From the IMG/VR virus record IMGVR_UViG_2541047692_000013: DNA of 42,307 nucleotides. The stretch is one strand, 5' to 3'. Source of the DNA: a virus (taxonomy: Duplodnaviria; Heunggongvirae; Uroviricota; Caudoviricetes). Numbering within the stretch: position 1 is the stretch's first letter; each line of letters starts with the position of its first letter. Under the pieces are notes generated by a model, which saw nothing but the letters and a program-made list of their open reading frames with translations, was not told the DNA's origin and made no database searches. Both the position numbers and the translations under genes were made by a program. This document shows positions 3,190-37,283 of the stretch, piece after piece.

Positions 3190-3206
3190 ATTACCCTATA
3201 GGTGAT
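3190..3206. promoter_or_regulatory. operator-like palindrome aTTACCctataGGTGAt (one mismatch) in divergent lysis / acetyltransferase promoter region
   Basis: Member of the recurring TTACC-N5-GGTAA family; 36 bp upstream of the acyltransferase ATG; TATCAT -10-like hexamer abuts it. Confidence 0.45.
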
Positions 3207-3241
3207 ATCATTGGGTTATCCTATTCAAAACGATAGCAATT

Positions 3242-5182
3242 ATGTCTTATTTAAAATACAGAACAGATATTGATGGGCTGCGAGCTATTGCGGTTTTGCT
3301 GGTCGTGCTGTACCACGCAAACTTTCCTATTCATGGTGGTTTTATTGGTGTAGATGTTTTTTTCGTCATATCAGGATATCTCATTACCAACATCATATAT
3401 AAAGAGACTAAAAGAAATATTTTTTCATTCCTTAATTTTTACAAACGTCGAATAAAGCGATTGCTCCCAGCTTTTGCTTTTCTTCTTTTATTTTTATTTG
3501 TTTACTGCAAATTATATTTGATGCCAGATGAACTTATATCATTCTCTAAAAGTGCGGTATACGCTCTTCTTGGCATAAGCAATTTCTATTTTTTTAGTAG
3601 CACAGGTTACTTTAACTCAACCTCTTATGAACCGCTTTTACACACATGGTCGCTTTCCGTTGAAGAGCAGTTCTACATTGTATGGCCTTTCATCGTTTTC
3701 ATGCTCGCTCGGAACTCAGGGACAAAAAAAGCAATAATAATATCCTCATTACTATTTATTGTATTCCTTGGTATTTCACAGTATGGAGCGGTTAATTATA
3801 AAACAGCAGCGTATCTCCTACTGCCTTTTAGGTTCTTTGAGTTGCTCTCAGGTGCCCTACTTGCTATCTATAAAGATTCAATAACAAAACATCTGCGCCA
3901 CGGTTCTGTAATTTCACTGGTCGGCGTAATGCTGATTGTGTTGAGTTCATTATTTATAAATTCTAACACGCCATTTCCTGGGTTCACTGTTTTGCCTACA
4001 TGTTTAGGCGCTGTAATGCTTATTGCTGCAGGTGACTCATCCAAAAACTTCATTTCTAAAGTGCTGTCTTTAACTCCAGTTGTTTATGTAGGAAGAATTT
4101 CCTACTCTCTTTATTTATGGCACTGGCCTGTACTGATTCTTGCTGAATACAGGGGTATCGATCTTACGGCCTTAAATGCGACGGCGCTCATACTTATCGC
4201 ATTCATCATGGCAAGCATAAGCTATCACTTCGTTGAAAAGCCATTTAGGAAGGATTCGCTGCAATATTTCAGGACTGCATTTATAACCATCTACTTGATA
4301 CCATTAATAGTATCCGCTGCCTATGCAGCGTACATTTTAAAAAATGATGGTTTTCGCGCCAAAAGTTCAGAGTTAGTATCTGAATTAGAAGAGAGAAACG
4401 CGACAAATATTATGCGCCCACAGTGTATTGATAAATTATTTATCGGTAATGTAAATGACTGTCATCTTGGCGTTAATAAAGGCGAAGTAGATGGCGTGCT
4501 TCTTGGTGACTCCTTTGGTAATGCATATGCTTACTTTATTGATGAACTTGCGAAAGATGCTGGAATATCAATAACAGATACTACATATAGCTCAACACCT
4601 GTAATATCAGGAATTTATGTGCAGGATATCAGAAATAAGATATCTGACATAGATGCTAACCTGATAATGACATATACAAAAAACAGGCTGGAGTATGCAG
4701 CAAAACAAAAGTTCGCGATAATTTCCGTTTTTTGGGATCAGTACGGGCCACAAAATAATTACTTCCGTATCTTCGATAAAAACGGTGACGTATCGGAGAA
4801 TGCTTACCAGTTGCAATCTGAAGCAATAAAATATCTGCTGTCCAATGGCGTGAAAGTTTACATCATTGCAAGACCTTACCAGTCTATTGGCCCTGCTGCG
4901 ATAAACAAACTGCGCCAAATTAAGCTACGGCATGGGGATGTAACAACTGAAAAATATGAATACGGCGTAAAGAAAGATGATCGGATAGAATACAAGTTAA
5001 AGCAGGAGTTCCCTCAGATAACGCTAATCGATCCTAACGATGTACTTTGCCACAAAGGGGAATGTGATGCCATCGTGGATGGGAAGATCATTTTCAGAAC
5101 TGATGGTTCACACCTGAATGCTGTTGGAGCAAAAAAAATCGGGGAAGAGTATTTGAAAAACTACGCAAACCCATTTCGATAA
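3242..5182 (+). CDS. O-antigen acetyltransferase-like (acyltransferase-3 membrane domain plus SGNH-type C-terminal domain); serotype-conversion moron
   Basis: N-terminal multi-TM acyltransferase-3 signature (DGLRAIAVLLVVLYH..., FFVISGYLIT); long periplasmic C-terminal domain as in OafA-type enzymes; visibly AT-rich; converges on tailspike. Confidence 0.75.
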   Translation: MSYLKYRTDIDGLRAIAVLLVVLYHANFPIHGGFIGVDVFFVISGYLITNIIYKETKRNIFSFLNFYKRRIKRLLPAFAFLLLFLFVYCKLYLMPDELISFSKSAVYALLGISNFYFFSSTGYFNSTSYEPLLHTWSLSVEEQFYIVWPFIVFMLARNSGTKKAIIISSLLFIVFLGISQYGAVNYKTAAYLLLPFRFFELLSGALLAIYKDSITKHLRHGSVISLVGVMLIVLSSLFINSNTPFPGFTVLPTCLGAVMLIAAGDSSKNFISKVLSLTPVVYVGRISYSLYLWHWPVLILAEYRGIDLTALNATALILIAFIMASISYHFVEKPFRKDSLQYFRTAFITIYLIPLIVSAAYAAYILKNDGFRAKSSELVSELEERNATNIMRPQCIDKLFIGNVNDCHLGVNKGEVDGVLLGDSFGNAYAYFIDELAKDAGISITDTTYSSTPVISGIYVQDIRNKISDIDANLIMTYTKNRLEYAAKQKFAIISVFWDQYGPQNNYFRIFDKNGDVSENAYQLQSEAIKYLLSNGVKVYIIARPYQSIGPAAINKLRQIKLRHGDVTTEKYEYGVKKDDRIEYKLKQEFPQITLIDPNDVLCHKGECDAIVDGKIIFRTDGSHLNAVGAKKIGEEYLKNYANPFR

Positions 5183-5185
5183 GGA

Positions 5186-5203
5186 GTGCGCCTCGCGGCG
5201 CAC
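5186..5203. terminator. GC-rich hairpin between convergent acetyltransferase and tailspike genes (no U-run)
   Basis: 7-bp stem gtgcgcc/ggcgcac with loop tcgc, in the 30-nt gap between the two stop codons. Confidence 0.35.
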
Positions 5204-5212
5204 ATGCCTAAA

Positions 5213-7444
5213 TTAAGACTTCTTAAGGTACGACCATGTAACAGTGGTCGTACCGCTGCTGGTAATAGATATATCCCTTTCTGATACGCTTGCTGTGAGG
5301 AACGCCGCAGTCTTCAGCGGCTGGATCATTGCTGTCGTACCATCATAAATTACCAGGAATGAAATCGCGTAGTTTGCACCTCCGCCAGAAACCCACACGT
5401 TAACATCATAAACTCCCTCAGAGTTTGGCAAAGTAAAGAGCACGGACGCTACGTTAGCGTTGACCGATTTAGTACCCTTGTCGGTATAGACCGTGGGCAC
5501 CTGAAGCCCATTGGCATTTTTATTTTCTACATACCCACCAGCAATAACGCCTGACGTGATGCAGTTCGTGTAGTTAACGTTGCCGGTGCTCACAGTAGAG
5601 ATGGTTGGAGTTCCTCCGGCCGGAGCCTGGAACCGGCAGTTATCTGCATCAACCTGCGAGGTTACATCTGTGTGGATGAATGATGGATAGCCGGCCATTC
5701 CTTCAAAAGCGATCGGCGTACCATCGAAGCTATCTTTGCAGTTCAGCATCTTCACGCGAGATCCATTTATCGCGCGGTAAAAATCAACGATACCATTAGA
5801 ACCACCGAAAGATGTTTTCAACTTGTTGCCAGAACCAACTGCCCCGACTATCGAAACGGTTGAATTATCGAATGTCATAAACGCCACCTCAAGTGCTGAG
5901 TTGTTGTTTATAACGTTCGCCTCACCATCAAAACCGGAGATAAGAAATCCGTGACAATTCGAAAGGTAAATAGCAGACTGACCGATAGACGCGTTGGAGT
6001 TTACTGTCATCTTATCTGCTGCGCAGTTCGTCATCTGCCCTGAAAGGAGGTTTGTTAAATACCACGCGCATACGCCACCCATTACATAGCAGGACTCATA
6101 ATGGATCGTCGTGCCGGTGTTTTTGTAGAAACCACCGCGACTGCGACGCACCCATACATGCTCAAGCCTAGACATATAATTTCCAGAGTCGTCATATACT
6201 CCCCACCATGCCCCATCTATATCGACGTTTTTAATCCTTATCAAACCCGGCGATGTCTCACCACCATTTATAAGAATGCCAATTTTACCGTCGTTTGTGG
6301 CAGCATCTGTTGGATAGTCAATTCCATTCTGATCATAGAAAATATATAAATTCTCAATATTTCCTGAAGCAAAAGACTCTCCATAATGTAAGCACGCTTT
6401 ATTTCCAATTACGGAAATAAAAGTCCCTGATCTATTTATTATGTTATTACACTCACCGTATACAGTTGCAGATGTATTCATCTTAATAGTGTCATTAACA
6501 AAATATGCATTTCCACCTGGAATAAACACATTTCGTCCAGTGTTAATAGCTGCCTGTATTCCTGCGTAGTCAAAAGACTGGGTAAGCGATGTCACAAATG
6601 GATATACCATTTGTGCTGCTGTCAATGTTGAAAACACTTCGCTTAACTGATGAAGTTTTCCATCGCCTGTAGCACCAAAATCTTTTGCACTAATAAAATC
6701 GCTGTTTTTATCATGCTGTGTACGAATAAATGAACTAATGAAAGGTTGCTTCACCGAGATCAGAGCATCGCCTTTCCCGTCCTCGCCGCTGGCCAACTGG
6801 TTGAATACGTCAGCCGCCGTTCCTGAAGGCACAGGGAACGGAACGGGCTTACCGTTGGCGATGCCGATTATGCTTCCTTCAAGTTGAGCGAGAGGTGGCA
6901 GCGGATCGATATAAGAATCAGGAACACGGATTGTATGGTCGATATTCGATAAAACCGTACTGTCCACATAATTCTTTGTGGATGCATCCTGCGGGTTTAC
7001 CGGGTCTTTCAGGTTTCGAATATAGTTGTTCAGCGCGTTATAATAATTTGCCACGAATGACGGCTTGCGCAGCGCCAAGCTAAACCAACTTCGAACCTGC
7101 TGGATCAGCATCGTTAGCTTATCAAAAGCATCCTCATGCACTTCTGCAAAGAACTTCCCCTGATTACGCAAATCAGTTTCCTGCGTAACCGGGAGCTCTC
7201 GTGATATAGAAATCTGGTAACCGTTAGCTAACGCCTTCGACAGAATTACATTACCGCCGTTATATCCACCAGCCCCAGTGACAGTGTAATCAGTATCCAG
7301 AGCCAGCACAGCGATATTTTCGTCAAGGTCAACCACCTGCACTACCAGATCAGATTCCTTGAAAACCCTAAAGGTATAAGGGAATGAAGTCGTAACGCCA
7401 TTGCCTGTGTATTCGTTGTGGTCAACTTCGGTTGAGACCGTCAT
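5213..7444 (-). CDS. tailspike / tail fibre protein with T7-type N-terminal adaptor domain and beta-helix-like receptor-binding domain
   Basis: N-terminus (YTGNGVTTSFPYTFRVF...DLVVQVVD...LDTDYTV) matches the conserved podovirus tail-fibre N-terminal domain; 743 aa; Gly/Asn/Thr-rich repeats. Confidence 0.75.
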   Translation of the reverse strand: MTVSTEVDHNEYTGNGVTTSFPYTFRVFKESDLVVQVVDLDENIAVLALDTDYTVTGAGGYNGGNVILSKALANGYQISISRELPVTQETDLRNQGKFFAEVHEDAFDKLTMLIQQVRSWFSLALRKPSFVANYYNALNNYIRNLKDPVNPQDASTKNYVDSTVLSNIDHTIRVPDSYIDPLPPLAQLEGSIIGIANGKPVPFPVPSGTAADVFNQLASGEDGKGDALISVKQPFISSFIRTQHDKNSDFISAKDFGATGDGKLHQLSEVFSTLTAAQMVYPFVTSLTQSFDYAGIQAAINTGRNVFIPGGNAYFVNDTIKMNTSATVYGECNNIINRSGTFISVIGNKACLHYGESFASGNIENLYIFYDQNGIDYPTDAATNDGKIGILINGGETSPGLIRIKNVDIDGAWWGVYDDSGNYMSRLEHVWVRRSRGGFYKNTGTTIHYESCYVMGGVCAWYLTNLLSGQMTNCAADKMTVNSNASIGQSAIYLSNCHGFLISGFDGEANVINNNSALEVAFMTFDNSTVSIVGAVGSGNKLKTSFGGSNGIVDFYRAINGSRVKMLNCKDSFDGTPIAFEGMAGYPSFIHTDVTSQVDADNCRFQAPAGGTPTISTVSTGNVNYTNCITSGVIAGGYVENKNANGLQVPTVYTDKGTKSVNANVASVLFTLPNSEGVYDVNVWVSGGGANYAISFLVIYDGTTAMIQPLKTAAFLTASVSERDISITSSGTTTVTWSYLKKS

Positions 7445-7547
7445 GTTAAATCTCCAGATAGTCGCAGCACCCGTTGCGCCGCATATCTGGTTATTCTATT
7501 ACCTGAAAAACCATATATGGATGGAAAGAGTGTTAATGTGAGCAGAT

Positions 7548-7564
7548 ATTACCTTTCAGGTGAT
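7548..7564. promoter_or_regulatory. operator-like palindrome aTTACCtttcaGGTGAt (one mismatch) in tailspike / antirepressor-domain divergent region
   Basis: Same family as the other TTACC-N5-GGTAA sites; about 100 bp upstream of tailspike start. Confidence 0.45.
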
Positions 7565-7600
7565 TCGCAAAACGTGCTGGATAGCAAACAAATTATTTGC

Positions 7601-7620
7601 TACTGTATAAACATACAGTT
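7601..7620. promoter_or_regulatory. LexA (SOS) box TACTGTATAAACATACAGTT
   Basis: CTGT-N8-ACAG with AT-rich spacer; 17/20 match to E. coli consensus TACTGTATATATATACAGTA; overlaps a TATAAA -10-like hexamer; 20 bp upstream of ATG 7640. Confidence 0.65.
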
Positions 7621-7639
7621 ATTGCATGGAGAAGATAAG

Positions 7640-7897
7640 ATGCAGCAGTATCACTATCCACTGGAAGAGGGATTTACCGAAAGGATTCACACGCCGGGAG
7701 GCGTCAGGTCACTGGTGGAAGGATCGCACTTGATGAAATTACTCCGGGATCTCGATAAGGATGGATTTAATGTCGATGGCCCACTTGCCGAACTGACTGC
7801 ACTGATTAACTACGTCACCAGCTCACAGATGTCTATGCAGGATCTGCAAACACATCTCGACTATTGTGCCGAACAACTACGAAAACAAACCACATAA
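7640..7897 (+). CDS. small protein homologous to the antirepressor C-terminal domain (stand-alone domain); candidate SOS-inducible antirepressor
   Basis: ATG 7640 with SD ggagaag; about 40% identity, gap-free, to the C-terminus of the Ant protein at 9045..9755 (IH.P.GV..L.E.S.LM.LL..L..DG..V.G..AELT...QTH). ORF track start 7517 would put the LexA box inside the CDS. Confidence 0.5.
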   Translation: MQQYHYPLEEGFTERIHTPGGVRSLVEGSHLMKLLRDLDKDGFNVDGPLAELTALINYVTSSQMSMQDLQTHLDYCAEQLRKQTT

Positions 7898-7903
7898 AGA
7901 AAA

Positions 7904-7919
7904 GGCCGCAAGAGCGGCC
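7904..7919. terminator. bidirectional terminator hairpin between convergent genes
   Basis: Stem ggccgc/gcggcc with loop aaga; T-rich on the minus-strand side, A-rich on the plus side. Confidence 0.5.
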
Positions 7920-8647
7920 TATCGTTTCGCTTTGTGCTCGTCCCAGCACGTTTTGCACCATGCCATTAAGCCATCCGCATTTTGATTATTAGGGTAAAAG
8001 CTGGTTCGTTTTCTGCGGACATTACAAATTGGGCACCACTTCATATGACGTGTATTCTTTGGGCCATCTAGACACCTTGCACACCACTTAGTCAATCCAT
8101 CTGGATTTTTTGACGATTTCCTGAATTTTTCATATGGAAGGTTTATTCTGCATCGCAAACACTGCTTGCGGGCACTTGAAACTTCGTTAGCTGATTCTTC
8201 TTTTGACGGCGATACAGAAGGTATTCTTGCTGGCTCTGATACTGCCTGAGGTGCTTTTTTAGGTGACTGAGACGATACGTCATCACCAGGGAATCTTCCA
8301 TGATATGCCGGACACGTTGACACTCCAGGTGGAAGCTCTGCTGTAAATGGCTTTGGCTGAATCAGTTGCCTCTCTTTTGCTAACTCCTGCTGTTTATAAT
8401 ATGTCTGGATTACCGCGCTATCATAAGCAGGAGGTACGGAAATATTAGGCGCATTATCTCCCGTTTTTTGAAACTGAGTGGAGGTGTGTTCTATCACCTG
8501 TGTACGATTAATCGTTATCTCCCCATCTTCAGTCTTTATCGTTTTGTTACGATTAACGACCGTACGATCAGAGATCTTAGTCTTGTTCTGGTGAAGGACA
8601 TAAATAATCACCGCAACCACACCAACAACTATCCAGAAAACTTCCAT
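7919..8647 (-). CDS. membrane-anchored protein with two C-terminal CxxC...CxxC zinc-ribbon-like repeats; function unknown
   Basis: N-terminal TM helix (VFWIVVGVVAVIIYVL); repeats CLRCRINLPYEKF...WCARC and CPICNVRRKRTSF...WCKTC; perfect operator 20 bp upstream of start. Confidence 0.5.
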   Translation of the reverse strand: MEVFWIVVGVVAVIIYVLHQNKTKISDRTVVNRNKTIKTEDGEITINRTQVIEHTSTQFQKTGDNAPNISVPPAYDSAVIQTYYKQQELAKERQLIQPKPFTAELPPGVSTCPAYHGRFPGDDVSSQSPKKAPQAVSEPARIPSVSPSKEESANEVSSARKQCLRCRINLPYEKFRKSSKNPDGLTKWCARCLDGPKNTRHMKWCPICNVRRKRTSFYPNNQNADGLMAWCKTCWDEHKAKR

Positions 8648-8666: not shown

Positions 8667-8683
8667 ATTACCTTAAAGGTAAT
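8667..8683. promoter_or_regulatory. operator palindrome aTTACCttaaaGGTAAt (perfect)
   Basis: Perfect TTACC-N5-GGTAA; immediately upstream of the 7919..8647 start codon on the minus strand. Confidence 0.55.
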
Positions 8684-8731: not shown

Positions 8732-8776
8732 TTGATTTTTATATTTCTCCGCGTTTATCATTACCTTTGCGGTAAA
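8732..8776 (+). promoter_or_regulatory. sigma70-like promoter (TTGATT, 18 bp, TATCAT) with perfect operator TTACCtttgcGGTAA overlapping -10/+1
   Basis: -35 at 8732-8737, -10 at 8756-8761, operator core 8761-8775. Confidence 0.5.
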
Positions 8777-8888
8777 TTTACATCGCACTCCTCTTGTGCC
8801 ATAGTAATCGGGCACTGGCAAAATCCAGTGCCGGGATTGGCGTCCCGGGTTACTAAGTGGCGCATACCACGCCAGACGTGGTTTTTTT
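8768..8888 (+). ncRNA. candidate small non-coding RNA, possibly antisense regulator of the downstream antirepressor mRNA
   Basis: Promoter at 8732-8761 and intrinsic terminator (ccacg-ccaga-cgtgg plus 7 T, 8867-8888); only an ATG-less ORF spans it; internal hairpins; two segments (8837-8843, 8853-8860) are collinearly complementary to the ant leader (8954-8961, 8968-8974). Confidence 0.3.
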
Positions 8889-9044
8889 ATGCGTTAAGCA
8901 CAGCTATATCCGAATTATGGTGGGCTGGGCAGGGGTCCGAAAGGACGCCGGTACCACTTAGGCCGGTACGCCAACCTTGTCCAGTTCACCACCAGTAATT
9001 GGCGTTGCGGTGGTGATTAAAATCACTAAGTGGAGATAACCACC

Positions 9045-9755
9045 ATGGCTAATGCTCAAACTTCCATCTTCAAATTTGAATCTGTTAACCCTATCCGTTC
9101 CATCATTATCGATGGCCAACCATGGTTTGTAGCCCAAGACGTTTGTAGTGCGCTGCGTATCCAAAACGTCACCCAAGCACTTGAAAAACTGGATGATGAT
9201 GAAAGGTCTATGTTCAACATAGGGCATGAACATCGTGCAATTTTTGACAGCCGAGTAAAAGAGATCAACATCATCTCCGAGTCAGGCCTCTACACACTGA
9301 TCCTCAGATGCCGCGACGCAGTGACACCAGGCACTATCCCCTACCGCTTTCGTAAATGGGTTACAGGTGAGGTTCTTCCTCAGATCCGCCGCACCGGAAG
9401 TTACATTAAAAACTCGCTCCCGCAGGAAGAACGCATAAAGATGGTTGCCGACCAGGTAGCCAACGCCACGGCGTCAGCAGTAATGCAGGCGATGAAGATA
9501 GAGAACAAAACCTACAGTGCCCCACTGAAGCCCGGCTACCGCAGTCTGATTCACTCGCCGTCTGGTGTTCTCGGCCTGACGGAGAACTCACTGCTGATGA
9601 ATCTGCTGAACCAGTTGCAGGACGACGGGCATGATGTATCGGGCGCGGCAGCGGAGCTGACCACCATGTTCTGCTACATCGTCGGTGTGAGCAAGTGCCT
9701 GCGTGATATCCAGACCCACGCGGAGTATATCAACGACAAAGCAGGGTTCTTCTGA
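9045..9755 (+). CDS. antirepressor (Bro-N / Ant family)
   Basis: Start taken as ATG 9045 with SD ggag; N-terminal Bro-N-like motif (IDGQPWFVAQDVCSALRI...LYTLILRCR...FRKWVTGEVLPQIRRTGSY). Confidence 0.75.
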   Translation: MANAQTSIFKFESVNPIRSIIIDGQPWFVAQDVCSALRIQNVTQALEKLDDDERSMFNIGHEHRAIFDSRVKEINIISESGLYTLILRCRDAVTPGTIPYRFRKWVTGEVLPQIRRTGSYIKNSLPQEERIKMVADQVANATASAVMQAMKIENKTYSAPLKPGYRSLIHSPSGVLGLTENSLLMNLLNQLQDDGHDVSGAAAELTTMFCYIVGVSKCLRDIQTHAEYINDKAGFF

Positions 9756-9826: not shown

Positions 9827-9843
9827 ATTACCTCAAGGGTAAG
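9827..9843. promoter_or_regulatory. operator palindrome aTTACCtcaagGGTAAg (perfect)
   Basis: 60 bp upstream of the 9902 ATG. Confidence 0.55.
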
Positions 9844-9901: not shown

Positions 9902-10534
9902 ATGAGAACAAATACAACAAGAAAAGCGATGCCATACATTATCCCAGAAGCAGATTTCGATAGAAAACTGAACATGTCTGAGAAGAACACTAGTCACACC
10001 GAAAGCTACTTAGCGAAAGGTGTGGTTGATTTCGTTCTTCCGGGATTCACAACACCTTATGGTTATCGCCTTGTAAAATCTTGTAATGGCGATCATTACA
10101 GAATGATTACTACCAGCGATACTCCAGAAACGGTGTATGCGGTTAAGTTAATCTTTCGGGAAGATATCGTCGAAGCCAAAAGAACATGTACGCAGATCAT
10201 GGTATGGCGTACGCCTAATGTTATTCATGACCGTGCTGTTCATGGTTTGCCTCAGATTTTTTTTCAGTTCTTCCTAGAGCAATATGCGATCGTTGTATCT
10301 GATGAGCAACAAACAATCGATGGGAGAAGATTCTGGGAAAGAATGATTTCTTGGGCTATAAACACCCCAGGATATAATGTATACGTTTCAGATGGCTCTG
10401 AAGAAGATAGACCTCTTAGCTTCATGACATCATGGGATGATTTCTATAGCCAGTGGGCTGATTTCTGTTGGGGCAGTGATAAAGATGTGCATACCCACAG
10501 ACTACTGGTTATAAGCAAAGATAAACTGCATTAA
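9902..10534 (+). CDS. hypothetical protein (moron, no recognisable domain)
   Basis: ATG 9902 with SD gggagga; 210 aa soluble protein; AT-rich relative to virion genes; own operator upstream and terminator downstream. Confidence 0.55.
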   Translation: MRTNTTRKAMPYIIPEADFDRKLNMSEKNTSHTESYLAKGVVDFVLPGFTTPYGYRLVKSCNGDHYRMITTSDTPETVYAVKLIFREDIVEAKRTCTQIMVWRTPNVIHDRAVHGLPQIFFQFFLEQYAIVVSDEQQTIDGRRFWERMISWAINTPGYNVYVSDGSEEDRPLSFMTSWDDFYSQWADFCWGSDKDVHTHRLLVISKDKLH

Positions 10535-26965: not shown

Positions 26966-27033
26966 ATCAATGACTCCGTACGCAATTAAATTATTACCAA
27001 TTTAACCACATATGATTTATTTATCGTAGACAG

Positions 27034-27071
27034 TTGACATTTAACGCACGAATTATTACCTTTCAGGTAAG
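27034..27071 (+). promoter_or_regulatory. promoter-like element (TTGACA at 27034-27039) with perfect operator TTACCtttcaGGTAA (27056-27070), in divergent region between virion operon and tRNA module
   Basis: Consensus -35 hexamer; operator where a -10 would lie; region is ORF-free on both strands. Confidence 0.45.
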
Positions 27072-27392: not shown

Positions 27393-27469
27393 GTGGCATT
27401 AGCTCAGTTGGACAGAGCAACCGCCTTCTAAGCGGTCGGTCGCAGGTTCGAATCCTGCATGCCACGCCA
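27393..27469 (+). tRNA. tRNA-Arg (anticodon UCU)
   Basis: 77-nt cloverleaf by hand: acceptor GTGGCAT/ATGCCAC, D-arm GCTC/GAGC, anticodon stem ACCGC/GCGGT with loop CTTCTAA, T-arm GCAGG-TTCGAAT-CCTGC, discriminator G, encoded CCA. Confidence 0.85.
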
Positions 27470-27512
27470 GAATCACGCCTAAGGACCGTGATGCCAGAAG
27501 TTCCAGGGGCTT

Positions 27513-27555
27513 GGCGGTGATGGTTTCCCTTGAAGGACTATCACCGCCCTTTTTA
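27513..27555 (+). terminator. intrinsic terminator after the tRNA
   Basis: 8-bp stem ggcggtga/tcaccgcc enclosing a 20-nt loop, followed by CTTTTTA. Confidence 0.5.
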
Positions 27556-27632
27556 CAGCAGGACGCCATTGCGATGGCTTCATGCTGTAAACCAGTACAG
27601 CCACGGAAGGCATAACTCATTGCTTCCAGTTC

Positions 27633-27656
27633 GCCCGGTTCGCCGGGCATTTTTTT
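27633..27656 (+). terminator. second intrinsic terminator, directly upstream of the next gene's RBS
   Basis: Stem gcccgg/ccgggc with loop ttcg followed by ATTTTTTT; SD aaggtgag starts right after. Confidence 0.55.
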
Positions 27657-28134: not shown

Positions 28135-29610
28135 TTAAGCATAGGGATCGTAATCTGTAATGGCCTTGCCTTGCTGGTTCTGCTGCCCGGGAATTCGCAG
28201 ACGCTTAGACACAGGGAACGCAAACGTCAGCAGTAGCGCATCGCCTTTACCCGGCGAACGCCCAAGCCGCTCCTTGATATCTTCCTTCGGTTCGATAACG
28301 ATTTTACCGTCCACTCGAACTTTGTACTCTGCCGCCGACAGGTCGTCCGCTGTTTCCTGGTCATCCAGCATGCCGCCCAGCCTCAGCCATGTCTTGCATG
28401 AGTTGAACATCTCCCCACGCTTGTTGAGCATCTGCGGGTCAGTAGACGCGCCACCGAACGGAACAAGTTGCCATGTGCGCCCCCAACCGTCACCGATTGA
28501 CTTCAGCCCGGTACCGTAACCGAAGTCGATGAACACCGCGTCAGCCTGATACTGGTCTTCAAAGTCAGCGATACGCTTCGCCATAATCAGATCGTCAGTG
28601 GTCTTGTTGCCGGTCCACAGCACCTTACTATGCAGCCCCTGCCGCAGGTATATCACAGCGTCATCAACGCCGGAGTATGCCGGGTCAACGCCGATTATCA
28701 CCGGAGCATGTGCAACCTGCGCAGCGGTTACCACCCGTTTCATTGCCTCGTCAGTAAGTCCGGTAGGGATAAACTGCAATTCAGATGCATCCGGGAATAT
28801 GCCGCGCACACGGATTTTAACGAAGTCGCTGTCTTCCCCGTAGTCATCAACCCATTTCTGCAACTGCTGTTTGTTAGTGCCTTCCACCGTCCGGCTGTCA
28901 ATCTGCGCAGTTTTCCAGCGGTGTTTATATTTGCGGAAACATTCGCGGAAACGCCCGGTGTTACGTGTAGGGTTTCCGAACGCCACCCAGATAATCTCAG
29001 TGTCTTCGTCCGTAAGCGCACCCTCAGCAACTTCCCACACCAGATCCGCAATGTTCGACGCTTCATCAAATACCACGATGATGCGTTTACGCTCGTTGTG
29101 TAGTCCGGCGAATGCCTCAGTGTTGTGCTCAGACCAAGGGATTGCGTCAGCTCGCCACCGCTTGTCGTGCCCAGGATCATTGCTGTACATCGCGGTAGCG
29201 GTACAGGTAAACCAGTCTTTCGTGATAGCAAGGTTCGACCACTTGATAATTTCCGGCCAGGTCTTCGTTCGTAGCTGGTTGTCGGTGTTGGCGGTCACCA
29301 CAACCTTACAATCCTCGCAAGTGGACATGCCCCAGTTGATCAGCATTGAGATGAATGCGGATTTACCAATACCGTGACCAGAAGCACGTGCCAGCATAAG
29401 CGGCTGATATCGCGTCTCTGGATTCTGCAGGTGATCACGTATCTCTCGGAACGCATCAGCCTGCCATTGACGTGGGCCGGTAGCATGTGCCAGTTCAGTC
29501 CCCTCTTCCCCCCACGGGAACGCATAGAGGGCATAACCAAGCGGATCGTGAGTAAACCCTGCAATATCCTCGATCAACTGCTCTTCAGGAGATAACACTG
29601 TATCTGTCAC
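28135..29610 (-). CDS. terminase large subunit
   Basis: 491 aa; N-terminal ATPase-like region and C-terminal nuclease-like region (GVDPAYSG); GTG start overlapping the small-subunit stop. Confidence 0.75.
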   Translation of the reverse strand: MTDTVLSPEEQLIEDIAGFTHDPLGYALYAFPWGEEGTELAHATGPRQWQADAFREIRDHLQNPETRYQPLMLARASGHGIGKSAFISMLINWGMSTCEDCKVVVTANTDNQLRTKTWPEIIKWSNLAITKDWFTCTATAMYSNDPGHDKRWRADAIPWSEHNTEAFAGLHNERKRIIVVFDEASNIADLVWEVAEGALTDEDTEIIWVAFGNPTRNTGRFRECFRKYKHRWKTAQIDSRTVEGTNKQQLQKWVDDYGEDSDFVKIRVRGIFPDASELQFIPTGLTDEAMKRVVTAAQVAHAPVIIGVDPAYSGVDDAVIYLRQGLHSKVLWTGNKTTDDLIMAKRIADFEDQYQADAVFIDFGYGTGLKSIGDGWGRTWQLVPFGGASTDPQMLNKRGEMFNSCKTWLRLGGMLDDQETADDLSAAEYKVRVDGKIVIEPKEDIKERLGRSPGKGDALLLTFAFPVSKRLRIPGQQNQQGKAITDYDPYA

Positions 29611-30200
29611 TGATTACCATCCTGACGTTCTTTGAGTCGCTTCCTGGCTGCTGCTATGCGATCAGCAATTGTCACATTCACATTAACATCCAGGCGTTCT
29701 TTGAATGCGTTGACGTCGACGTGCTTACCAATCAGTTCGAGGTTCTTCACCTTGTCAGGCCATTTAATTTTTTTGAGGATTGTCTCTATCGAATCCTCGT
29801 TCATGTTCATGATGGTCGATGACAGATCAAAGCCGCTAAGCGTAGTGCGCCAGATTTTCGGCCACTCGCGGATTGGCTTAAGGCTCCCATCGTCGTTGAG
29901 GATGTCGATCACGTCCATCTGGTCGATCTCCACCAGGCGCATGAGAACGTAATCAGCACTGACGCGCATTCGTTTGTTGCGCTCCTCCATCAACTCGGCA
30001 ATCCGTTTTTGAATGCGTTCATCGCGCATCATGACACTGGCTTTAACTGCCGCTGTATTTGGGGAGAATCCTGCATTAATCGCTGCCTGAGTCTGGTTTT
30101 CAGGCGTTTTGATGTATGACTGGCAATAAGCCTCCTGCATTGCTGTTAGTGGCTTAAATTGCGTTGATTTGCGTTTATAGGTTTTAGGTTCAGCAGGCAT
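29607..30200 (-). CDS. terminase small subunit
   Basis: Start taken as the second ATG (30198-30200; 30201-30203 also possible); the ORF-track N-terminal extension runs through the operator and is discounted; Terminase_2-like region (AINAGFSPNTAAVKASVMMRDERIQKRI). Confidence 0.65.
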   Translation of the reverse strand: MPAEPKTYKRKSTQFKPLTAMQEAYCQSYIKTPENQTQAAINAGFSPNTAAVKASVMMRDERIQKRIAELMEERNKRMRVSADYVLMRLVEIDQMDVIDILNDDGSLKPIREWPKIWRTTLSGFDLSSTIMNMNEDSIETILKKIKWPDKVKNLELIGKHVDVNAFKERLDVNVNVTIADRIAAARKRLKERQDGNQ

Positions 30201-30201
30201 C

Positions 30202-30236
30202 ATAACCACCGTGGTAATAGTTACCGTTGTGGTAAT
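30202..30236. promoter_or_regulatory. tandem operator sites at the terminase start: aTAACCaccgtGGTAAt (one mismatch) and gTTACCgttgtGGTAAt (perfect)
   Basis: Centres 18 bp apart; the first overlaps the TerS start codon and SD. Confidence 0.5.
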
Positions 30237-30243
30237 AGTACCA

Positions 30244-30272
30244 TGCAAAATAAAGCCGCCATAGTTGGCGGC
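30244..30272 (-). terminator. intrinsic terminator between the early operon and the late (terminase) operon
   Basis: Stem gccgcca/tggcggc with loop tagt, followed on the minus strand by TTTATTTT; about 45 nt upstream of the TerS start. Confidence 0.6.
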
Positions 30273-30313
30273 AGTATTCAAAACCCATCAAATTCATCAT
30301 GCATAATCTACTC

Positions 30314-30325
30314 GTGACATGTCAC
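30314..30325. repeat. perfect palindrome GTGACATGTCAC (copy 3 of 3)
   Basis: Overlaps the stop codon of 30322..30660; about 40 nt upstream (minus sense) of the terminator before TerS. Confidence 0.8.
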
Positions 30326-30660
30326 ACTATTAATTTAGTTTCATGCCAGCCTTTAGTCACCCAGCATTGCGAGTCACCATTACACGGGCATGAATTAACG
30401 GGAACTTTCTCGCCGCACTTACCGCAACGTTTTCTGCTAATCGATTTTATACGCCCGCGCACGCGTGCATCATCCTGGCGGATCAGTAACGCTATATACT
30501 CCCCAAATTCGTAAGGCGCACGCCCGGGGCGACGCGTGGCACAGTTACGCTCCAGCATTTCAATTTCCTGAGCATCAAGCACAATCTCCAGCTTACGCAC
30601 ACCAGATGCAGCTTGTCTGGCTCTCTGAGCGGCTTTGCGCTCTGCTGCTGATTTAGCCAT
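30322..30660 (-). CDS. small basic protein with C-terminal Cys-rich zinc-ribbon-like motif; candidate late-gene regulator (speculative)
   Basis: 112 aa; Arg/Lys/Ala-rich N-terminus, C-terminal CGKCGEKVPVNSCPCNGDSQC; last gene of the early operon directly before the terminator and late operon. Confidence 0.45.
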   Translation of the reverse strand: MAKSAAERKAAQRARQAASGVRKLEIVLDAQEIEMLERNCATRRPGRAPYEFGEYIALLIRQDDARVRGRIKSISRKRCGKCGEKVPVNSCPCNGDSQCWVTKGWHETKLIV

Positions 30661-32125: not shown

Positions 32126-32126
32126 A

Positions 32127-33177: not shown

Positions 33178-33734
33178 GACTGAACTCCTTTGCGAATCTG
33201 TTCCGCCCATTCTTCAAGGGATTTCTCCGCATATTCACCAGACAGGCCATCAATCGGATGCGGTTCATTAGCCAACTCTTCTTTCGCTGACAAAATCATG
33301 CGTGTAACGTCGAAAACTTCACGCAAAGACTTATTGATAAATCCGTGATTGAACGCAGCAGCAAGACGGCTTGCGGTGTAGTTAATCCCCTCGTTGCGTG
33401 CCTCCGCACGTATTTCAGCCAGGAAAGCATCGGTGGCTGTGGTTTTGTTGTCGCACATGAACTCAAGCGCGTCGTTCCCATCAAGATTGCAGAACTCCCA
33501 TGCTGACGAATAGAACTCGATGCCAGGCCAGACCAAGAGTCTATTCATTTTGTCATTTAGTGTCGCATTCTCCGCCGCCAGCGCATTAGCACGCACCAGT
33601 TGCACTTCCAGTTGCGTTGCCAAATAGCTGATCAGCTTTGCCACACTGCGCATATCAACGGCACCACATTCTGCTTTCAGTTCCGAAGCCATCTCATGCC
33701 CGGCGGTAACTAACCCTTTGATATTACTTTCCAT
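33174..33734 (-). CDS. hypothetical early protein
   Basis: 186 aa; ATG 33732-33734 with SD gaggg; co-directional in early operon. Confidence 0.5.
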   Translation of the reverse strand: MESNIKGLVTAGHEMASELKAECGAVDMRSVAKLISYLATQLEVQLVRANALAAENATLNDKMNRLLVWPGIEFYSSAWEFCNLDGNDALEFMCDNKTTATDAFLAEIRAEARNEGINYTASRLAAAFNHGFINKSLREVFDVTRMILSAKEELANEPHPIDGLSGEYAEKSLEEWAEQIRKGVQS

Positions 33735-33795
33735 CTTTACCCTCGCTTATCCACATAACTTATTGATTACATTGATAACTAAAAAGATCGTCGAT

Positions 33796-34140
33796 TCAGA
33801 ACTCTTCGATATTCCAGCCACCACCTGCTTTCTTTGGTTTAACCGTTACCCCGATGATTCGGAACGGATACTGATCTGCGGCGACTTTGGTTTTCACCCT
33901 GGCGTCGTCGGTCCAGAAACCTTTCACTTCGTGCAGTTCCATCTCTCCGGTGGCGAGCATCACAGCGAAATCTGGCGTATAGAACGTGTTATCAGCTAAC
34001 CGCAGCTTGATACCCTCGAATCGATACCAGGCGATTTCCCCTGCACGTTTACGCAGCTCAAGGTGCTGGCAATACGCAGATTCTGTTTTGTTCATCTGGC
34101 CTGTTTTGAGTCGACCAAGAGCCTGTATCTGTTTTCTCAT
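33796..34140 (-). CDS. DUF1064-like phage protein (putative nuclease-fold)
   Basis: 114 aa; motif ESAYCQHLELRKRAGEI...YRFE...YTPDF...EVKG typical of DUF1064; operator overlaps its SD. Confidence 0.5.
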   Translation of the reverse strand: MRKQIQALGRLKTGQMNKTESAYCQHLELRKRAGEIAWYRFEGIKLRLADNTFYTPDFAVMLATGEMELHEVKGFWTDDARVKTKVAADQYPFRIIGVTVKPKKAGGGWNIEEF

Positions 34141-34142
34141 GA

Positions 34143-34221
34143 TTTACCCCTGAGGTAATTAAAAACCACATAAGACACGAAATCAATAGAGTTTAGAATA
34201 TTTTATTACCCAACAGGTAAT
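34143..34221. promoter_or_regulatory. internal early-operon control region: two perfect operators (TTACCcctgaGGTAA 34144-34158; TTACCcaacaGGTAA 34206-34220) flanking a promoter-like interval
   Basis: Centres 62 bp apart; first site is 3 bp from the start codon of 33796..34140; a weak hairpin plus T7 run (34231-34252, minus sense) lies just upstream. Confidence 0.5.
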
Positions 34222-34257
34222 TATCAAGACGTAAAAAAATGCGCTATCGCGCTGGTA

Positions 34258-35034
34258 TTACTTGATAAATCCTGCCGCCTTTCCCCGCCTGTATTCCTCC
34301 ATCAGCCACTGCGCCGGTGTTATTCCCCCCAGGGTGGCGGCGTTAGGCATACACCCGAAACTTCGCCCTGGTGGATGGTAAACGTCTCTCCCTGTGTCCG
34401 GAGGTGTACTCATGGGTTCTGGCTTTGCCTGTATGCTGATCACCGGATCGGGTATCTGCTGTCCGGAAGCCACCTTTTTCGCCCAATCATCGAGCAGCCT
34501 GCGCGCGTGTTTCTCAACCTCAATCTCGCTAAGCTGGCGCTGATACATTGCACGGCGGGTATCACATACGACCCAGTACATAACCGGATGTCGCCACGGG
34601 AATCTTTCGGGACCACCAGGATATAAACTTTTTTCCTTGCTGTACCGGTGAAACTCCGCCATCACATCGTCAATGGTGACGCCAAGAACCATCTTGCTGT
34701 CTTTGCACCACTTGATGAATTGCCCAGGCGACGGCCAGAACGGAGATTCACTGGCGCGGGCGTGGCGCATACCAGCGTTAACCTGTTCCATTGTTGTGAT
34801 CCCATTCTCCAGAAACGCAAGCATCCATTGCTTACGGAATTCATTAAGTTTGTTCTGCTCCCTTATGGTCGAAACGCTTGCAGGAAATGCAGCCTGTAAC
34901 TGGACAAATAGTTCATTGAAAATTCTAGCAACCTGCTCCTTTTTGCCATTGCTGTCACGCCGCTCTTCATGCACAGCAACACCATGCTCACGTAAGCGAT
35001 CGTACTCATTGAGAAGTTCTGGAGTTGATTTCAT
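34258..35034 (-). CDS. replication protein, lambda P-like helicase loader
   Basis: Strong motif match to lambda P: FPAS...EQNKLNEFRKQWMLAFLENGITTMEQVNAGMRHAR...PFWPSPGQFIKWC. Confidence 0.75.
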   Translation of the reverse strand: MKSTPELLNEYDRLREHGVAVHEERRDSNGKKEQVARIFNELFVQLQAAFPASVSTIREQNKLNEFRKQWMLAFLENGITTMEQVNAGMRHARASESPFWPSPGQFIKWCKDSKMVLGVTIDDVMAEFHRYSKEKSLYPGGPERFPWRHPVMYWVVCDTRRAMYQRQLSEIEVEKHARRLLDDWAKKVASGQQIPDPVISIQAKPEPMSTPPDTGRDVYHPPGRSFGCMPNAATLGGITPAQWLMEEYRRGKAAGFIK

Positions 35035-35836
35035 CCCACACCCCTTCTATCCAGTCAGTGTTATTCCAGTCAAGCTCATCGCTTTTCCCGGCGTTTTTTG
35101 ATTTTCCCCTGATATGATTTACGTGCCTGGCGAATTTTTGTTCCCACTGAACCTGCGTGAACACTTTGCCCTCAGCCATCCAGTAATCCCGGAATGCAGC
35201 AAGTTCAGCAGGTGTAAATTCCGGTTCCGGCAGGGCCGTTCCCCACAGCGCAGCACGCCGTCGAAAATCCGGCGACGGATGCCAGCCATCGGTCATCGGA
35301 AATTTCCCGATGGGTTCACTCAGGCCATCCAGAAATTCAGGTTCAGCCACCTGCAACGGCATACCGTTCGCTTCACTGGTCGGAGCACCCTCGCGCACGT
35401 GCGCTATGTGTGGGGTTTTATATATATCTTCCTCTTCCTCTTCCTCTGGTAACTCCTTTTGTAACGCTGTTGGCGTTACTTTTTGCGTTACTCGTTTTCG
35501 ATGCTCTGCCACTCTTCTATTCGTAAGTGCACGTTTTTTCGATGATTCTCCATTATGTCGCTCAAAGTTTGGAAGAATTAGTTTGCCGTCATGATAAGCA
35601 AGCCATCCGACGCTAATGAGGGCGTCAGCAAATCCTGTAATAAAAGCGAGTCTATCAAGTACTCCTTTTGTAACGCTGCCAGCGTTACCGTCTATTGTTT
35701 GCTGGTCAGCCCATGCCCATATACGAACCAGCTTTCCAAGAACAGCATCTGGATCAATACCCAGAATTTCTGCTATCTGAAAAATTTCAGGTTTATCAGG
35801 AGTGATAACTTCAACCTTAATCCAGCTGCTTGCCAT
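35006..35836 (-). CDS. replication initiator / replisome organiser (functional analogue of lambda O)
   Basis: Start reassigned to ATG 35834-35836 (MASSWIKVEV...) with SD gagggg; acidic linker (EEEEEED); directly upstream of P-like gene; contains iteron-like repeats. Confidence 0.55.
   Translation of the reverse strand: MASSWIKVEVITPDKPEIFQIAEILGIDPDAVLGKLVRIWAWADQQTIDGNAGSVTKGVLDRLAFITGFADALISVGWLAYHDGKLILPNFERHNGESSKKRALTNRRVAEHRKRVTQKVTPTALQKELPEEEEEEDIYKTPHIAHVREGAPTSEANGMPLQVAEPEFLDGLSEPIGKFPMTDGWHPSPDFRRRAALWGTALPEPEFTPAELAAFRDYWMAEGKVFTQVQWEQKFARHVNHIRGKSKNAGKSDELDWNNTDWIEGVWDEINSRTSQ
35452..35687. repeat. iteron-like repeats plus AT-rich tract inside the initiator gene (candidate replication origin)
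   Basis: 17-nt direct repeat CTCCTTTTGTAACGCTG at 35452-35468 and 35661-35677, each followed by inverted half-site GCGTTAC (35472-35478, 35484-35490, 35681-35687); AT tract ttttatatatat at 35416-35427. Confidence 0.45.
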
Positions 35837-36029
35837 AGGTTTCCCCTCTTGCACTCTTTAGTGCACAAGCAAATTCATTACGATGGCGGTTGGCGCTATT
35901 CATTGCACATTCAACACATGTTCCGTTCAGAACATACCTTTCAGAGAGATGGCCGTGACGGCACCGCTTTCCTGTGAAATAGCGATTTAACCCGGCTTTT
36001 GCGGCCTCCATTCTGGTTACTATCTTCAA
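35817..36029 (-). CDS. small Cys/His-rich (zinc-finger-like) early protein
   Basis: 70 aa; motif CRHGH...GTCVEC; between cro-like and replication genes (position of lambda cII); start ambiguous (TTG 36029 or ATG 36011). Confidence 0.4.
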   Translation of the reverse strand: MKIVTRMEAAKAGLNRYFTGKRCRHGHLSERYVLNGTCVECAMNSANRHRNEFACALKSARGETYGKQLD

Positions 36030-36106
36030 TTTTTCCGCCCCTTTTTGTTATTGATATTGGCTATTTTGCACAATTGGAAAATTTGATCAACCAGATTTGG
36101 TTTTTT

Positions 36107-36123
36107 ATTACCTTTGAGGTACG
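36107..36123. promoter_or_regulatory. operator-like palindrome aTTACCtttgaGGTACg (one mismatch) between cro-like and downstream early genes
   Basis: Same motif family; adjacent to a terminator-like hairpin. Confidence 0.4.
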
Positions 36124-36130
36124 AATAGAT

Positions 36131-36155
36131 ATGAAAAGACCGCCGGGTGGCGGTC
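36131..36155 (-). terminator. terminator-like hairpin downstream of the cro-like gene (tR1-like position)
   Basis: Stem gaccgcc/ggcggtc with loop gggt, followed on the minus strand by TTTTCAT. Confidence 0.4.
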
Positions 36156-36177
36156 TACAGAGGGTTGTAGCTGGATA

Positions 36178-36408
36178 TCATGAGTAGAAGAAGTATGCCA
36201 GTTCTGCTTTTGAGCGCAGCCATTGTCTTGTTTTACAGGCTTTAAAAAGCCCATTCATCAATACTTTACCTGGCATTTTGCGCTTACCTGTTAAGTGAGT
36301 CTGGATATAGTGACTCGTCGTTCCGGCTTCCTGTGCGAAGGCTTCACGCTCATCCGGAGTAAGTGCAAGCCAGTGCTTTTTGAAATCGAAATGTCCGTTA
36401 TCGCTCAT
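36178..36408 (-). CDS. Cro-like HTH regulator
   Basis: 76 aa; HTH (REAFAQEAGTTSHYIQTHLTG); divergent from the CI-like gene across the operator cluster; first gene of the leftward early operon. Confidence 0.6.
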   Translation of the reverse strand: MSDNGHFDFKKHWLALTPDEREAFAQEAGTTSHYIQTHLTGKRKMPGKVLMNGLFKACKTRQWLRSKAELAYFFYS

Positions 36409-36443
36409 AGCTATTGCCTGATATTTATTTCAGATAATAAATA

Positions 36444-36508
36444 TTCACCCATAAGGTAACAAAAATCAAGGATAGTTACCCATGAGGTGCATTTACCTGT
36501 TGGGTAAT
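36444..36508. promoter_or_regulatory. tripartite operator in the cro / cI-like intergenic region
   Basis: Three sites: TCACCcataaGGTAA (36445-36459), TTACCcatgaGGTGC (36476-36490), TTACCtgttgGGTAA (36493-36507); a minus-strand TTGATT -35-like hexamer lies among them. Confidence 0.6.
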
Positions 36509-36562
36509 ATTGCTTTAAATTGAATCATCTACTGATTCATATATGAGGCGATTTTCCAGAAA

Positions 36563-37147
36563 ATGAAAAGTATCCAGGACGTCCGCAGGCAAAATCTCAA
36601 CGACTTGATCGACCGTGAATTCAATGGTGTTCAGACGCGGATGGCAGAAAAACTTGGAACTCAGGCAAATCTGGTAAACCGCTGGGCTCTTGGCAAGAAG
36701 GTTATCGGCGACCAGGTTGCGCGAAAAATTGAAGCTGCCGCCAATAAACCACGTAACTGGCTTGATATCGATCGCTCGCTTTCTCAGGAAGGTTTTCAGC
36801 CTGTCGGCCCAAGCGACATTGGTCAGCTGGCGGCTCACAACCTGGAACGCTGGATGAGCGAAAGCCGCGACCTTTCAACTCAGGGAAAACTTCACCGCGC
36901 ATCCGGCGTCGCCCAGGTGACAATCAGCCGCCTGTTAAACAATGAGGTCAGTGTTTCCATTTCCACCCTGGAGAATGTTGCATCAGCATTCGGGCGTCAC
37001 GGCTATGAATTACTGATTCACCCGCACGACCCTGCGACCATCAACTATGACCGCTCGCGCTACGCATTGTTACCCGAAACCGAGAAAGCAAAGATCGAAA
37101 GTTACATTGAATTTGTCATCAACCAGAACGAAAAAAACAAACAATAA
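36563..37147 (+). CDS. CI-like repressor with two tandem HTH (XRE-type) domains and no peptidase/autocleavage domain
   Basis: 194 aa; HTH-like segments at about residues 20-45 (VQTRMAEKLGTQANLVNRW) and 110-140 (ASGVAQVTISRLLNNEVSVSISTLENVASAF); no Ala-Gly/Ser-Lys LexA-type cleavage module seen. Confidence 0.55.
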   Translation: MKSIQDVRRQNLNDLIDREFNGVQTRMAEKLGTQANLVNRWALGKKVIGDQVARKIEAAANKPRNWLDIDRSLSQEGFQPVGPSDIGQLAAHNLERWMSESRDLSTQGKLHRASGVAQVTISRLLNNEVSVSISTLENVASAFGRHGYELLIHPHDPATINYDRSRYALLPETEKAKIESYIEFVINQNEKNKQ

Positions 37148-37169
37148 AATCATATTTTTCAGTAAGTAA

Positions 37170-37192
37170 GCCGCCTTCTGGCGGCTTTTTTA
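37170..37192 (+). terminator. intrinsic terminator after the CI-like gene
   Basis: Stem gccgcc/ggcggc with loop ttct followed by TTTTTT. Confidence 0.7.
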
Positions 37193-37203
37193 TTGCCTAT
37201 ACT

Positions 37204-37283
37204 ATTACCTAATGGGTAATTTTTTTTAACTCATATCTATTGACATCAAACCAAATACGCATAATTATTACCTCAACGGTAAC
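37204..37283 (+). promoter_or_regulatory. rightward early promoter (TTGACA at 37240-37245) flanked by two perfect operators
   Basis: Operators TTACCtaatgGGTAA (37205-37219) and TTACCtcaacGGTAA (37268-37282); the second overlaps the -10/+1 region; followed by SD gagg and ATG 37302. Confidence 0.55.

Follow-up and report, generated by a model that had tools for sequence, protein, structure and literature searches.

The Cro protein of phage λ shares the operators of the CI repressor. In phage P1, a single C1 repressor acting at many dispersed operators controls early, late-regulatory and antirepressor functions; the C1 operators are asymmetric 17-mers, the immI region comprises the c4 antisense RNA, icd and ant, and P1 itself is a plasmid prophage with a myovirus virion. 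The stoperators of mycobacteriophages L5 and Bxb1 are 13-bp asymmetric sites, biased in orientation and scattered within transcription units, that stop elongation. A further arrangement is the Rep/Ant switch of Salmonella phage SPC32H (PDB 5D50 and 5D4Z), reportedly the work of Kim & Ryu 2013 and Kim et al. 2016. This last system is the closest to the one considered here, a palindromic operator, TTACC-N5-GGTAA, that recurs in front of the transcription units of the prophage in virus record IMGVR_UViG_2541047692_000013 (the window; that is, the entire 42,307-bp stretch of DNA that was analysed).

The SPC32H repressor, Rep, comprises N-terminal DNA-binding, middle dimerisation and C-terminal tetramerisation domains; it binds palindromic DNA as a tetramer and is not cleaved at induction but dismantled by a tetrameric antirepressor, Ant (secondary accounts in PMC9638917 and PMC9986798). 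The tetramer presents two separated DNA-binding pairs, crystal contacts suggest octamers, and the structural mechanism of repression "has not been extensively characterized" (PMC9986798). The palindrome of the window is real, well supported and almost certainly bound by the master repressor of the prophage; it belongs, on all sequence criteria tested, to the ε15/SPC32H Rep operator set, and as a repressor operator it is already known for this phage genus. The reading that we favor, and hold to be quite probable, is that the 15-17-bp sequence (A)TTACC-wnWnw-GGTAA(T) constitutes the operators through which Rep directly gates early, late and accessory units, with a LexA-controlled Ant freeing Rep at induction. 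The likeness to ε15 and SPC32H, which belong with the prophage to genus Uetakevirus, extends to the same 17-bp palindrome (ATTACC-N5-GGTAAT), to its placement at terS, gp3, the tailspike gene, the early-left promoter (OL) and an internal early promoter, to homologous Rep and Ant proteins, and to a LexA box before ant. The differences are that Rep of the window is only 42% identical to theirs, and that the window has extra sites at an isrK/C4/Bro-N module and at two accessory genes.

Perfect matches to the pattern (TTACCNNNNNGGTAA) number ten in the window against an expectation of 0.06 from 100 dinucleotide-preserving shuffles of the window (shuffle maximum, 1), and allowing up to one mismatch yields 16 matches against 0.67 expected; none of the 100 shuffles reaches the observed counts. 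The 157.5 kb of E. coli chromosome scanned as host control contain no perfect match. (They do contain nine one-mismatch matches, or ~2.4 per 41 kb, which is above the shuffle estimate, so that one or two of the one-mismatch matches in the window could be chance.) When all perfect palindromes of the form 5-N(3-7)-5 are counted, TTACC-N5 is at the top with its ten copies; the next three have 3, 3 and 2, and two of these runners-up are sub-patterns of the same motif. The symmetrised consensus in the window is A-TTACC-wnWnw-GGTAA-T, its central base pair being essentially always A/T. An initial annotation had listed ten perfect and six one-mismatch sites and judged their frequency to be far above chance. 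Every one of the ten is found at exactly the coordinates that it gave, and its judgement of frequency stands against the shuffles as well as against the host DNA; five of the six imperfect sites (those beginning at 3191, 7549, 30203, 36108 and 36445) also stand, while that at 36476-36490 has two mismatches rather than one.

Placement is as distinctive as number. Of the 17 sites, 16 fall in non-coding DNA, which amounts to only 6.4% of the prophage (P ~1e-17), and this upholds the initial annotation's claim that every site is intergenic, the sole exception being a match that it had not listed. This exception, 2949-2963 (CTACCGCAGAGGTAA), was rejected as a 17th operator; it is located within the gp23-like membrane gene, relatives lack it, and its occurrence fits the host background rate, so that it is probably a chance match. 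All ten intergenic gaps longer than 100 bp that contain a promoter or the 5' end of a gene carry at least one site, and the only long gaps lacking one are the attR junction, the gap between the tRNA gene and p03, and one convergent gap between two 3' ends.

The assignment of these sites to a repressor is not new. The ε15 RefSeq record (NC_004775.2) has seven features marked "protein_bind, repressor, lysogeny", all of which read (A)TTACC-N5-GGTAAT and which are located before terS, before gp3 of the virion operon, before the tailspike gene, before the resolvase gene and, three of them, between the repressor gene and the early-left operon, at OL. Through these features the palindrome, as a repressor site that also stands at late operons, has been public since the ε15 genome paper of 2007 (Virology 369:234). 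The record marks 7 of 15 motif matches in ε15, leaving the sites at the repressor/cro-like switch (OR), the lysis cassette and int unmarked, and phiV10-type records, that of phiV10 itself among them, have no operator features. A text search of the literature on these operators (ε15, phiV10, Uetakevirus, SPC32H) returned secondary mentions only. The ε15 genome paper, Kropinski et al. 2007, is said to give a consensus like ATTACCWDWWNGGTAAT.

The main comparison comprised six Uetakevirus genomes from Escherichia, Salmonella, Enterobacter and Klebsiella, within a set of Rep-encoding sequences made up of the window, phiV10, ε15, SPC32H, Tyrion, BUCT711, a prophage of E. coli DLL7555 and three contigs from metagenomes or genomes, among which is a Serratia prophage. 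Orthologous site positions are kept in nine Rep-encoding genomes. At gp3, which heads the virion operon, the site is 91-92 bp upstream in seven of seven genomes, with invariant half-sites. Between the tailspike gene and ant it lies 99-107 bp from the former (105-107 bp in 5/6 genomes) and 75-86 bp from the latter, and at the lysis cassette it lies 104-106 bp upstream in 5/6 genomes, none having been found there in BUCT711. The upstream alignments of gp3, tailspike and lysis genes share one property, namely that half-sites are invariant and spacers and flanks variable. Paired sites are found at terS (18 bp apart), at OL (62-63 bp apart, with the spacing conserved) and at the internal early promoter (62 bp apart in seven genomes); OR has two or three sites, and one site follows the terminator of the cro-like gene. 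The DLL7555 prophage has the same site pattern, as do the three contigs, whose Rep homologues are 53-58% identical and among which the Serratia prophage is integrated elsewhere. In relatives, a variant with the right half-site GGTAT (TTACC-N5-GGTAT) is located 42-43 bp upstream of the start of int (comparison sequences L006, 5462-5476; L001, 26870-26884; L002, 26882-26896). The corresponding operator of this prophage, its 17th or 18th, is out of sight because the window ends exactly at the int start codon (42307).

No genome was found in which the same virion genes are combined with a different repressor: all close portal relatives carry Rep, and the next ones are at most 50% identical. Cobetia phage Carin1, whose virion module is related (its portal is 50% identical) and in which Rep has no homologue, served as a negative control and has no sites. 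Together with the occupied gaps (10/10) and the annotation of ε15, the conserved positions support the core of the initial proposal, namely that one operator and one phage regulator serve the immunity switch, the antirepressor and tailspike genes, and early, late, lysis and accessory units alike.

The presumed operator-binding protein is the 194-residue product of rep (36563-37147, plus strand), which has two helix-turn-helix (HTH) regions. It matches SPC32H Rep (PDB 5D50_A) over its full length (E 4e-42), this being its sole PDB match, and is 100% identical to the repressors of phiV10 and ZX5. Pfam assigns it to HTH families only (YdaS/Cro-like and HTH_3 regions), and neither Peptidase_S24 nor any other peptidase domain was found in it with Pfam. 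The initial description of this regulator as CI-like accordingly has to be given up: it is not of the RecA-cleavable λ CI type but of the SPC32H Rep type, with two HTH regions, no S24 domain and a LexA-controlled antirepressor as its partner. The recognition helix of Rep, N36-L-V-N-R-W41 (NLVNRW), is invariant in clades that are 42-78% identical overall, and clades only 42-45% identical share both helix and operator (window, 36563-37147; L002, 32690-33286; L003, 33739-34335; L005, 6487-7068). Divergent from rep is a cro-like gene (36178-36408, minus strand) whose 76-residue product matches PHROG 35, "transcriptional repressor" (E 6e-13), and is a possible second binder of the sites.

The partner of Rep is encoded by ant (7640-7897, plus strand), whose 85-residue product is an orthologue of SPC32H Ant (PDB 5D50 chain E, E 5e-48). 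At 7601-7620, 20 bp upstream of ant, there is a near-perfect LexA box, TACTGTATAAACATACAGTT. Its location directly before the antirepressor gene predicts that the prophage is SOS-inducible by antirepression and not by repressor cleavage.

The promoters referred to in what follows are predicted sigma-70 promoters, so that all positions of sites relative to them are predictions as well. OR and OL flank rep, and the cluster of sites is densest there. At OR, the perfect site 36493-36507 is 56 bp upstream of the rep start, and the one-mismatch site 36445-36459 overlaps the -35 element and spacer of the cro-like promoter (TTGTTA-17-TATTAT, minus strand). Between them lies 36476-36490 (TTACCCATGAGGTGC), the two-mismatch site mentioned above, giving OR spacings of 17 and 30-31 bp; it is probably a real, if weak, operator, since ε15 and SPC32H have a perfect middle OR site at the same place. 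OL consists of two perfect sites, a distal one (37205-37219) upstream of the -35 element of the early-left promoter and a proximal one (37268-37282) that abuts the -10 element of this promoter (TTGACA-17-AATTAT, 37240-37268) and covers its likely transcript start. A one-mismatch site (36108-36122) is located between the terminator that follows the cro-like gene and the p42-like gene (minus strand), and is conserved in phiV10 and Tyrion, both of which have a GTACC variant of it. The internal early promoter (TTGATA-16-TAAAAT, minus strand) has its 16-bp spacer filled by the perfect site 34206-34220, and the perfect site paired with it, 34144-34158, is 4 bp from the ATG of a DUF1064/resolvase-like gene on the same strand.

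At terS, the one-mismatch site 30203-30217 overlaps the ribosome-binding site and ATG, and the perfect site 30221-30235, 18 bp from it, closely follows the terminator of the early-right operon; the pair is also present in phiV10, ε15 and Tyrion. The terS open reading frame as drawn in phiV10 and in the PGAP annotation of DLL7555 (29607-30281, minus strand, 224 residues) contains this rho-independent terminator (30272-30255) as well as both operators. An in-frame ATG at 30203 would yield a protein of 198 residues, the length of ε15 TerS. The annotated start, being upstream of the terminator and of both operators, is thus probably wrong.

The remaining sites stand alone. A perfect one (27056-27070) lies between the virion operon, beginning with its gp3-like gene (minus strand), and a tRNA-Arg gene (plus strand). 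The divergent gap between the tailspike gene (minus strand) and ant (plus strand) has a one-mismatch site (7549-7563), 105 bp away from the start of the tailspike gene and 77 bp from ant, whose position is kept in all genomes compared. The divergent gap between the lysis cassette (gp23-like gene, minus strand) and the AT3-SGNH acyltransferase gene (plus strand) has another (3191-3205, TTACCCTATAGGTGA), with one mismatch, 104 bp from the gp23-like start. Two perfect sites belong to accessory genes, 8668-8682 being 21 bp upstream of a gene encoding 242 residues (7919-8647, minus strand) and 9828-9842 being upstream of one encoding 210 residues (9902-10534, plus strand). Finally, the perfect site 8761-8775, which has orthologues in phiV10, Tyrion and BUCT711, abuts the -35 element of the predicted promoter of the isrK/C4 RNA/Bro-N module (TTTACA-17-CATAGT, 8777-8805), from which transcription is predicted to start near 8812, at the start of isrK as delimited by Rfam. 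The Rfam matches are to the Hfq-binding small RNA isrK (8812-8888, plus strand, 67.7 bits) and the C4 antisense RNA (8913-8996, plus strand, 66 bits against a gathering score of 45); the two RNAs stand in tandem between the Rep operator with its promoter and an antirepressor-like Bro-N gene (9030-9755, plus strand). The module resembles P1 immI or the isrK-anrP segment of Gifsy-1, set within an ε15-type podovirus.

The three late operons have a second sequence in common. Exactly three copies of it, CATATRTGGTT with the palindromic core CCATATATGG, are present in the window, one each for the lysis (3148-3158), tailspike (7509-7519) and virion (27004-27014) operons; all are on the minus strand, which is the late-gene strand, and each lies downstream of its operator at a distance of 29-41 bp. 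The motif is followed by a -10-like element, TAATAAT, TAGAAT or TATGAT. (A weaker copy is present at 34164-34174, also on the minus strand.) Five of the six Uetakeviruses keep the motif at all three operons, and BUCT711 has it only at the virion operon, with one mismatch, and at the tailspike gene; the ε15 and phiV10 records do not annotate it. CATATRTGGTT is probably an activator-dependent late promoter or activator site. As a guess, the corresponding activator might be the small regulator that is encoded directly upstream of terS (30322-30660, minus strand), a p55-like protein of 112 residues matching PHROG 536, "transcriptional regulator". The -35 and -10 elements of the late promoters, and the promoter of rep, are ambiguous from sequence alone.

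The mechanism that we propose (in which binding by Rep, the sign of its effect at individual sites and the formation of loops are all inferred) can be put as follows. In the lysogen, Rep would occupy about 16 sites in ten intergenic regions: three sites at the rep/cro-like switch, the 63-bp pair at the early-left promoter, the 62-bp pair at the internal early promoter, one site after the cro-like terminator, the terS pair, and single sites at the virion operon, the tailspike gene, the lysis cassette, ant, the isrK/C4/Bro-N module and two accessory genes. Early promoters would be repressed by occlusion, which is likely because their operators overlap -35, spacer, -10 or +1, possibly aided by looping between paired sites. 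The spacing of 62-63 bp corresponds to about six helical turns and, given a tetramer with two DNA-binding pairs, would be compatible with a small repression loop. At the late operons, Rep would more probably block contacts with an activator or with upstream sequence, or bridge sites, than occlude RNA polymerase. Induction would follow the SPC32H scheme: with LexA gone from the box at ant after DNA damage, Ant would dislodge Rep from every operator simultaneously.

Several observations weigh against this picture. The annotation of repressor sites in ε15 is a prediction. Overexpression of Rep in phage ZX5 cut holin and endolysin mRNA by >99.9% (PMC9782041), as direct gating of lysis genes would have it, but this drop could be indirect, through a block of early genes. 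The operators of the late operons lie clear of the likely core promoters. The 8761-8775 site is centred near -44 of the isrK promoter, a location compatible with activation, and the 3191-3205 site lies within the spacer of a predicted plus-strand promoter (TTCACG-18-TATCAT) of the acyltransferase, a lysogenic-conversion gene that is expected to be on in the lysogen. Nor is there covariation between Rep and its site among Rep homologues down to 52% identity: in the three contigs of variants examined, the recognition helix reads NLVSRW or NLISRW (the latter with a 5-residue insertion), and the operator is the same, an outcome that agrees with the assignment to Rep but is not decisive. Since the operators of these variants are unchanged, the link between Rep and site rests not on covariation but on co-occurrence, clustering at rep, homology and prior annotation.

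Some of the same observations have led us to consider that Rep is not purely a repressor, and that sites outside the immunity region are activating or architectural: Rep might, for example, stimulate the isrK/C4 promoter and so silence the Bro-N antirepressor, or its tetramers and octamers might bridge sites and compact the prophage. The abutment of 8761-8775 on the -35 element of isrK (centred near -44), the location of late operators 29-41 bp upstream of the late motif and outside the core promoter, the conserved pair spacing of about six helical turns (62-63 bp), and the two separated DNA-binding pairs of each tetramer, with octamers suggested (PMC9986798), would all suit this explanation. 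We nevertheless regard it as unlikely: the positions relative to promoters are predictions only, sites at early promoters are at classic occluding positions, and Rep overexpression silences lysis transcripts (PMC9782041).

That the palindrome is read mainly by another phage regulator, either the 76-residue cro-like protein or the 112-residue p55-like protein, with the sites serving lytic-phase control, we consider more improbable still. Both proteins fall in regulator families ("transcriptional repressor" and "transcriptional regulator" PHROGs, respectively), both genes accompany the motif in every genome examined, and shared use of operators is plausible in general, as λ Cro and CI illustrate; yet the motif is densest around rep, at OR and OL, the N-terminal recognition helix of Rep is invariant in clades that share the half-site, the curators of ε15 gave the sites to the repressor, and a late regulator has a better candidate target in CATATRTGGTT. 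SPC32H Rep, moreover, is reported to bind palindromic sites (PMC9638917). A non-regulatory origin of the repeats, as products of chance or composition, as a methyltransferase or restriction target, or as a recombination or packaging signal, has a negligible probability and can be regarded as effectively refuted by the shuffles, the host control and positional conservation. AT-rich intergenic DNA does favor AT-rich palindromes, but 0/100 shuffles reach the observed count and 157.5 kb of host DNA lack a single perfect copy; the phage does encode an MT-A70 methyltransferase, but a modification target would occur inside genes too, and these sites occur only in gaps that bear promoters, keeping their distances to start codons from one genus to another.

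A prophage whose units are gated by Rep, which is the reading we retain, can be set against the more familiar multi-operator systems, and the initial annotation had already likened it to the dispersed C1 operators of P1 and to mycobacteriophage stoperators. The likeness is sound as regards function; it fails for the sites themselves, which in those phages are asymmetric and here are palindromes at the 5' ends of units. The window would share with P1 the many operators of one repressor, and it also has a C4-family RNA before an antirepressor-like Bro-N gene, behind operator 8761-8775. Its sites differ from those of P1 in being perfect inverted repeats of unrelated sequence, and Rep, which matches only HTH_3/Cro-type families and SPC32H Rep, has no detectable kinship with C1. 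As with stoperators, there are many genome-wide copies of one repressor site, and a roadblock role is conceivable for the terS pair, which follows a terminator; unlike stoperators, the sites are symmetric, 16 of 17 are in 5' intergenic gaps, mostly associated with promoters, and none is conserved inside an operon. The resemblance to λ and P22 lies in the repressor and cro-like genes, which diverge around a three-site OR, and in a multi-site OL at the early-left promoter. In contrast to λ, however, Rep lacks an S24 self-cleavage domain, induction is by antirepressor, and operators are distributed over ten regions that include late, lysis, tailspike and accessory units.

The prophage that carries these sites is a phiV10/ε15-type Uetakevirus integrated at guaA/yfgI. 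Approximately the first 1163 bp of the window (1-1163) are E. coli host DNA with genes yfgH and yfgI, next to guaA, and the prophage sits at the same attachment site near guaA as has been described for phiV10 and ZX5. The remainder of the 42,307 bp is prophage, 97-98% identical to Uetakeviruses vB_EcoP_ZX5, HEMP4 and TL-2011b, with phiV10 as a close relative. Gene order, mapped by tblastn with phiV10 proteins and read from right to left in the window, begins with the integrase gene int (41057-42307), which stops at the window edge, and continues through the early-left operon, rep (plus strand), the cro-like gene (minus strand), replication and accessory early genes, and the small regulator; terS, terL, the tRNA-Arg gene, the virion operon (26965 down to 10840, minus strand) and a variable accessory region follow, and then come ant, the tailspike gene, the AT3-SGNH acyltransferase gene and the lysis cassette. 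The tRNA-Arg gene (anticodon TCT; 27393-27469, plus strand) is antisense to an open reading frame (27399-27650, minus strand) homologous to phiV10 p04, and p04 may for this reason be a spurious gene call.

The regulation described here is no new kind of system, and the same sites have been in the public record of ε15 since 2007. With it, phiV10-type E. coli prophages, including phages of O157 and O103 enterohaemorrhagic strains, join the ε15/SPC32H regulatory scheme, in which a non-cleavable tetrameric repressor has operators before essentially every unit and a LexA-controlled antirepressor is the off-switch. In its fullest form, which we put forward tentatively and with slightly less than even confidence, the scheme would have tetrameric Rep gate all lytic and accessory units, the late ones included, through promoter-flanking pairs about six helical turns apart and through solitary upstream sites, one LexA-controlled antirepressor would free the whole genome, and ε15/SPC32H-type and phiV10-type phages, although of different genera, would be mutually immune. 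Cross-immunity of ε15/SPC32H-, Klebsiella- and phiV10-type phages is predicted because their Reps, although only 42-45% identical, share recognition helix and operator. The operator map may be of use in annotating these common prophages (including the start of terS), in designing phiV10-based reporter phages, and in choosing sites for chromatin immunoprecipitation and electrophoretic mobility shift analysis of Rep.

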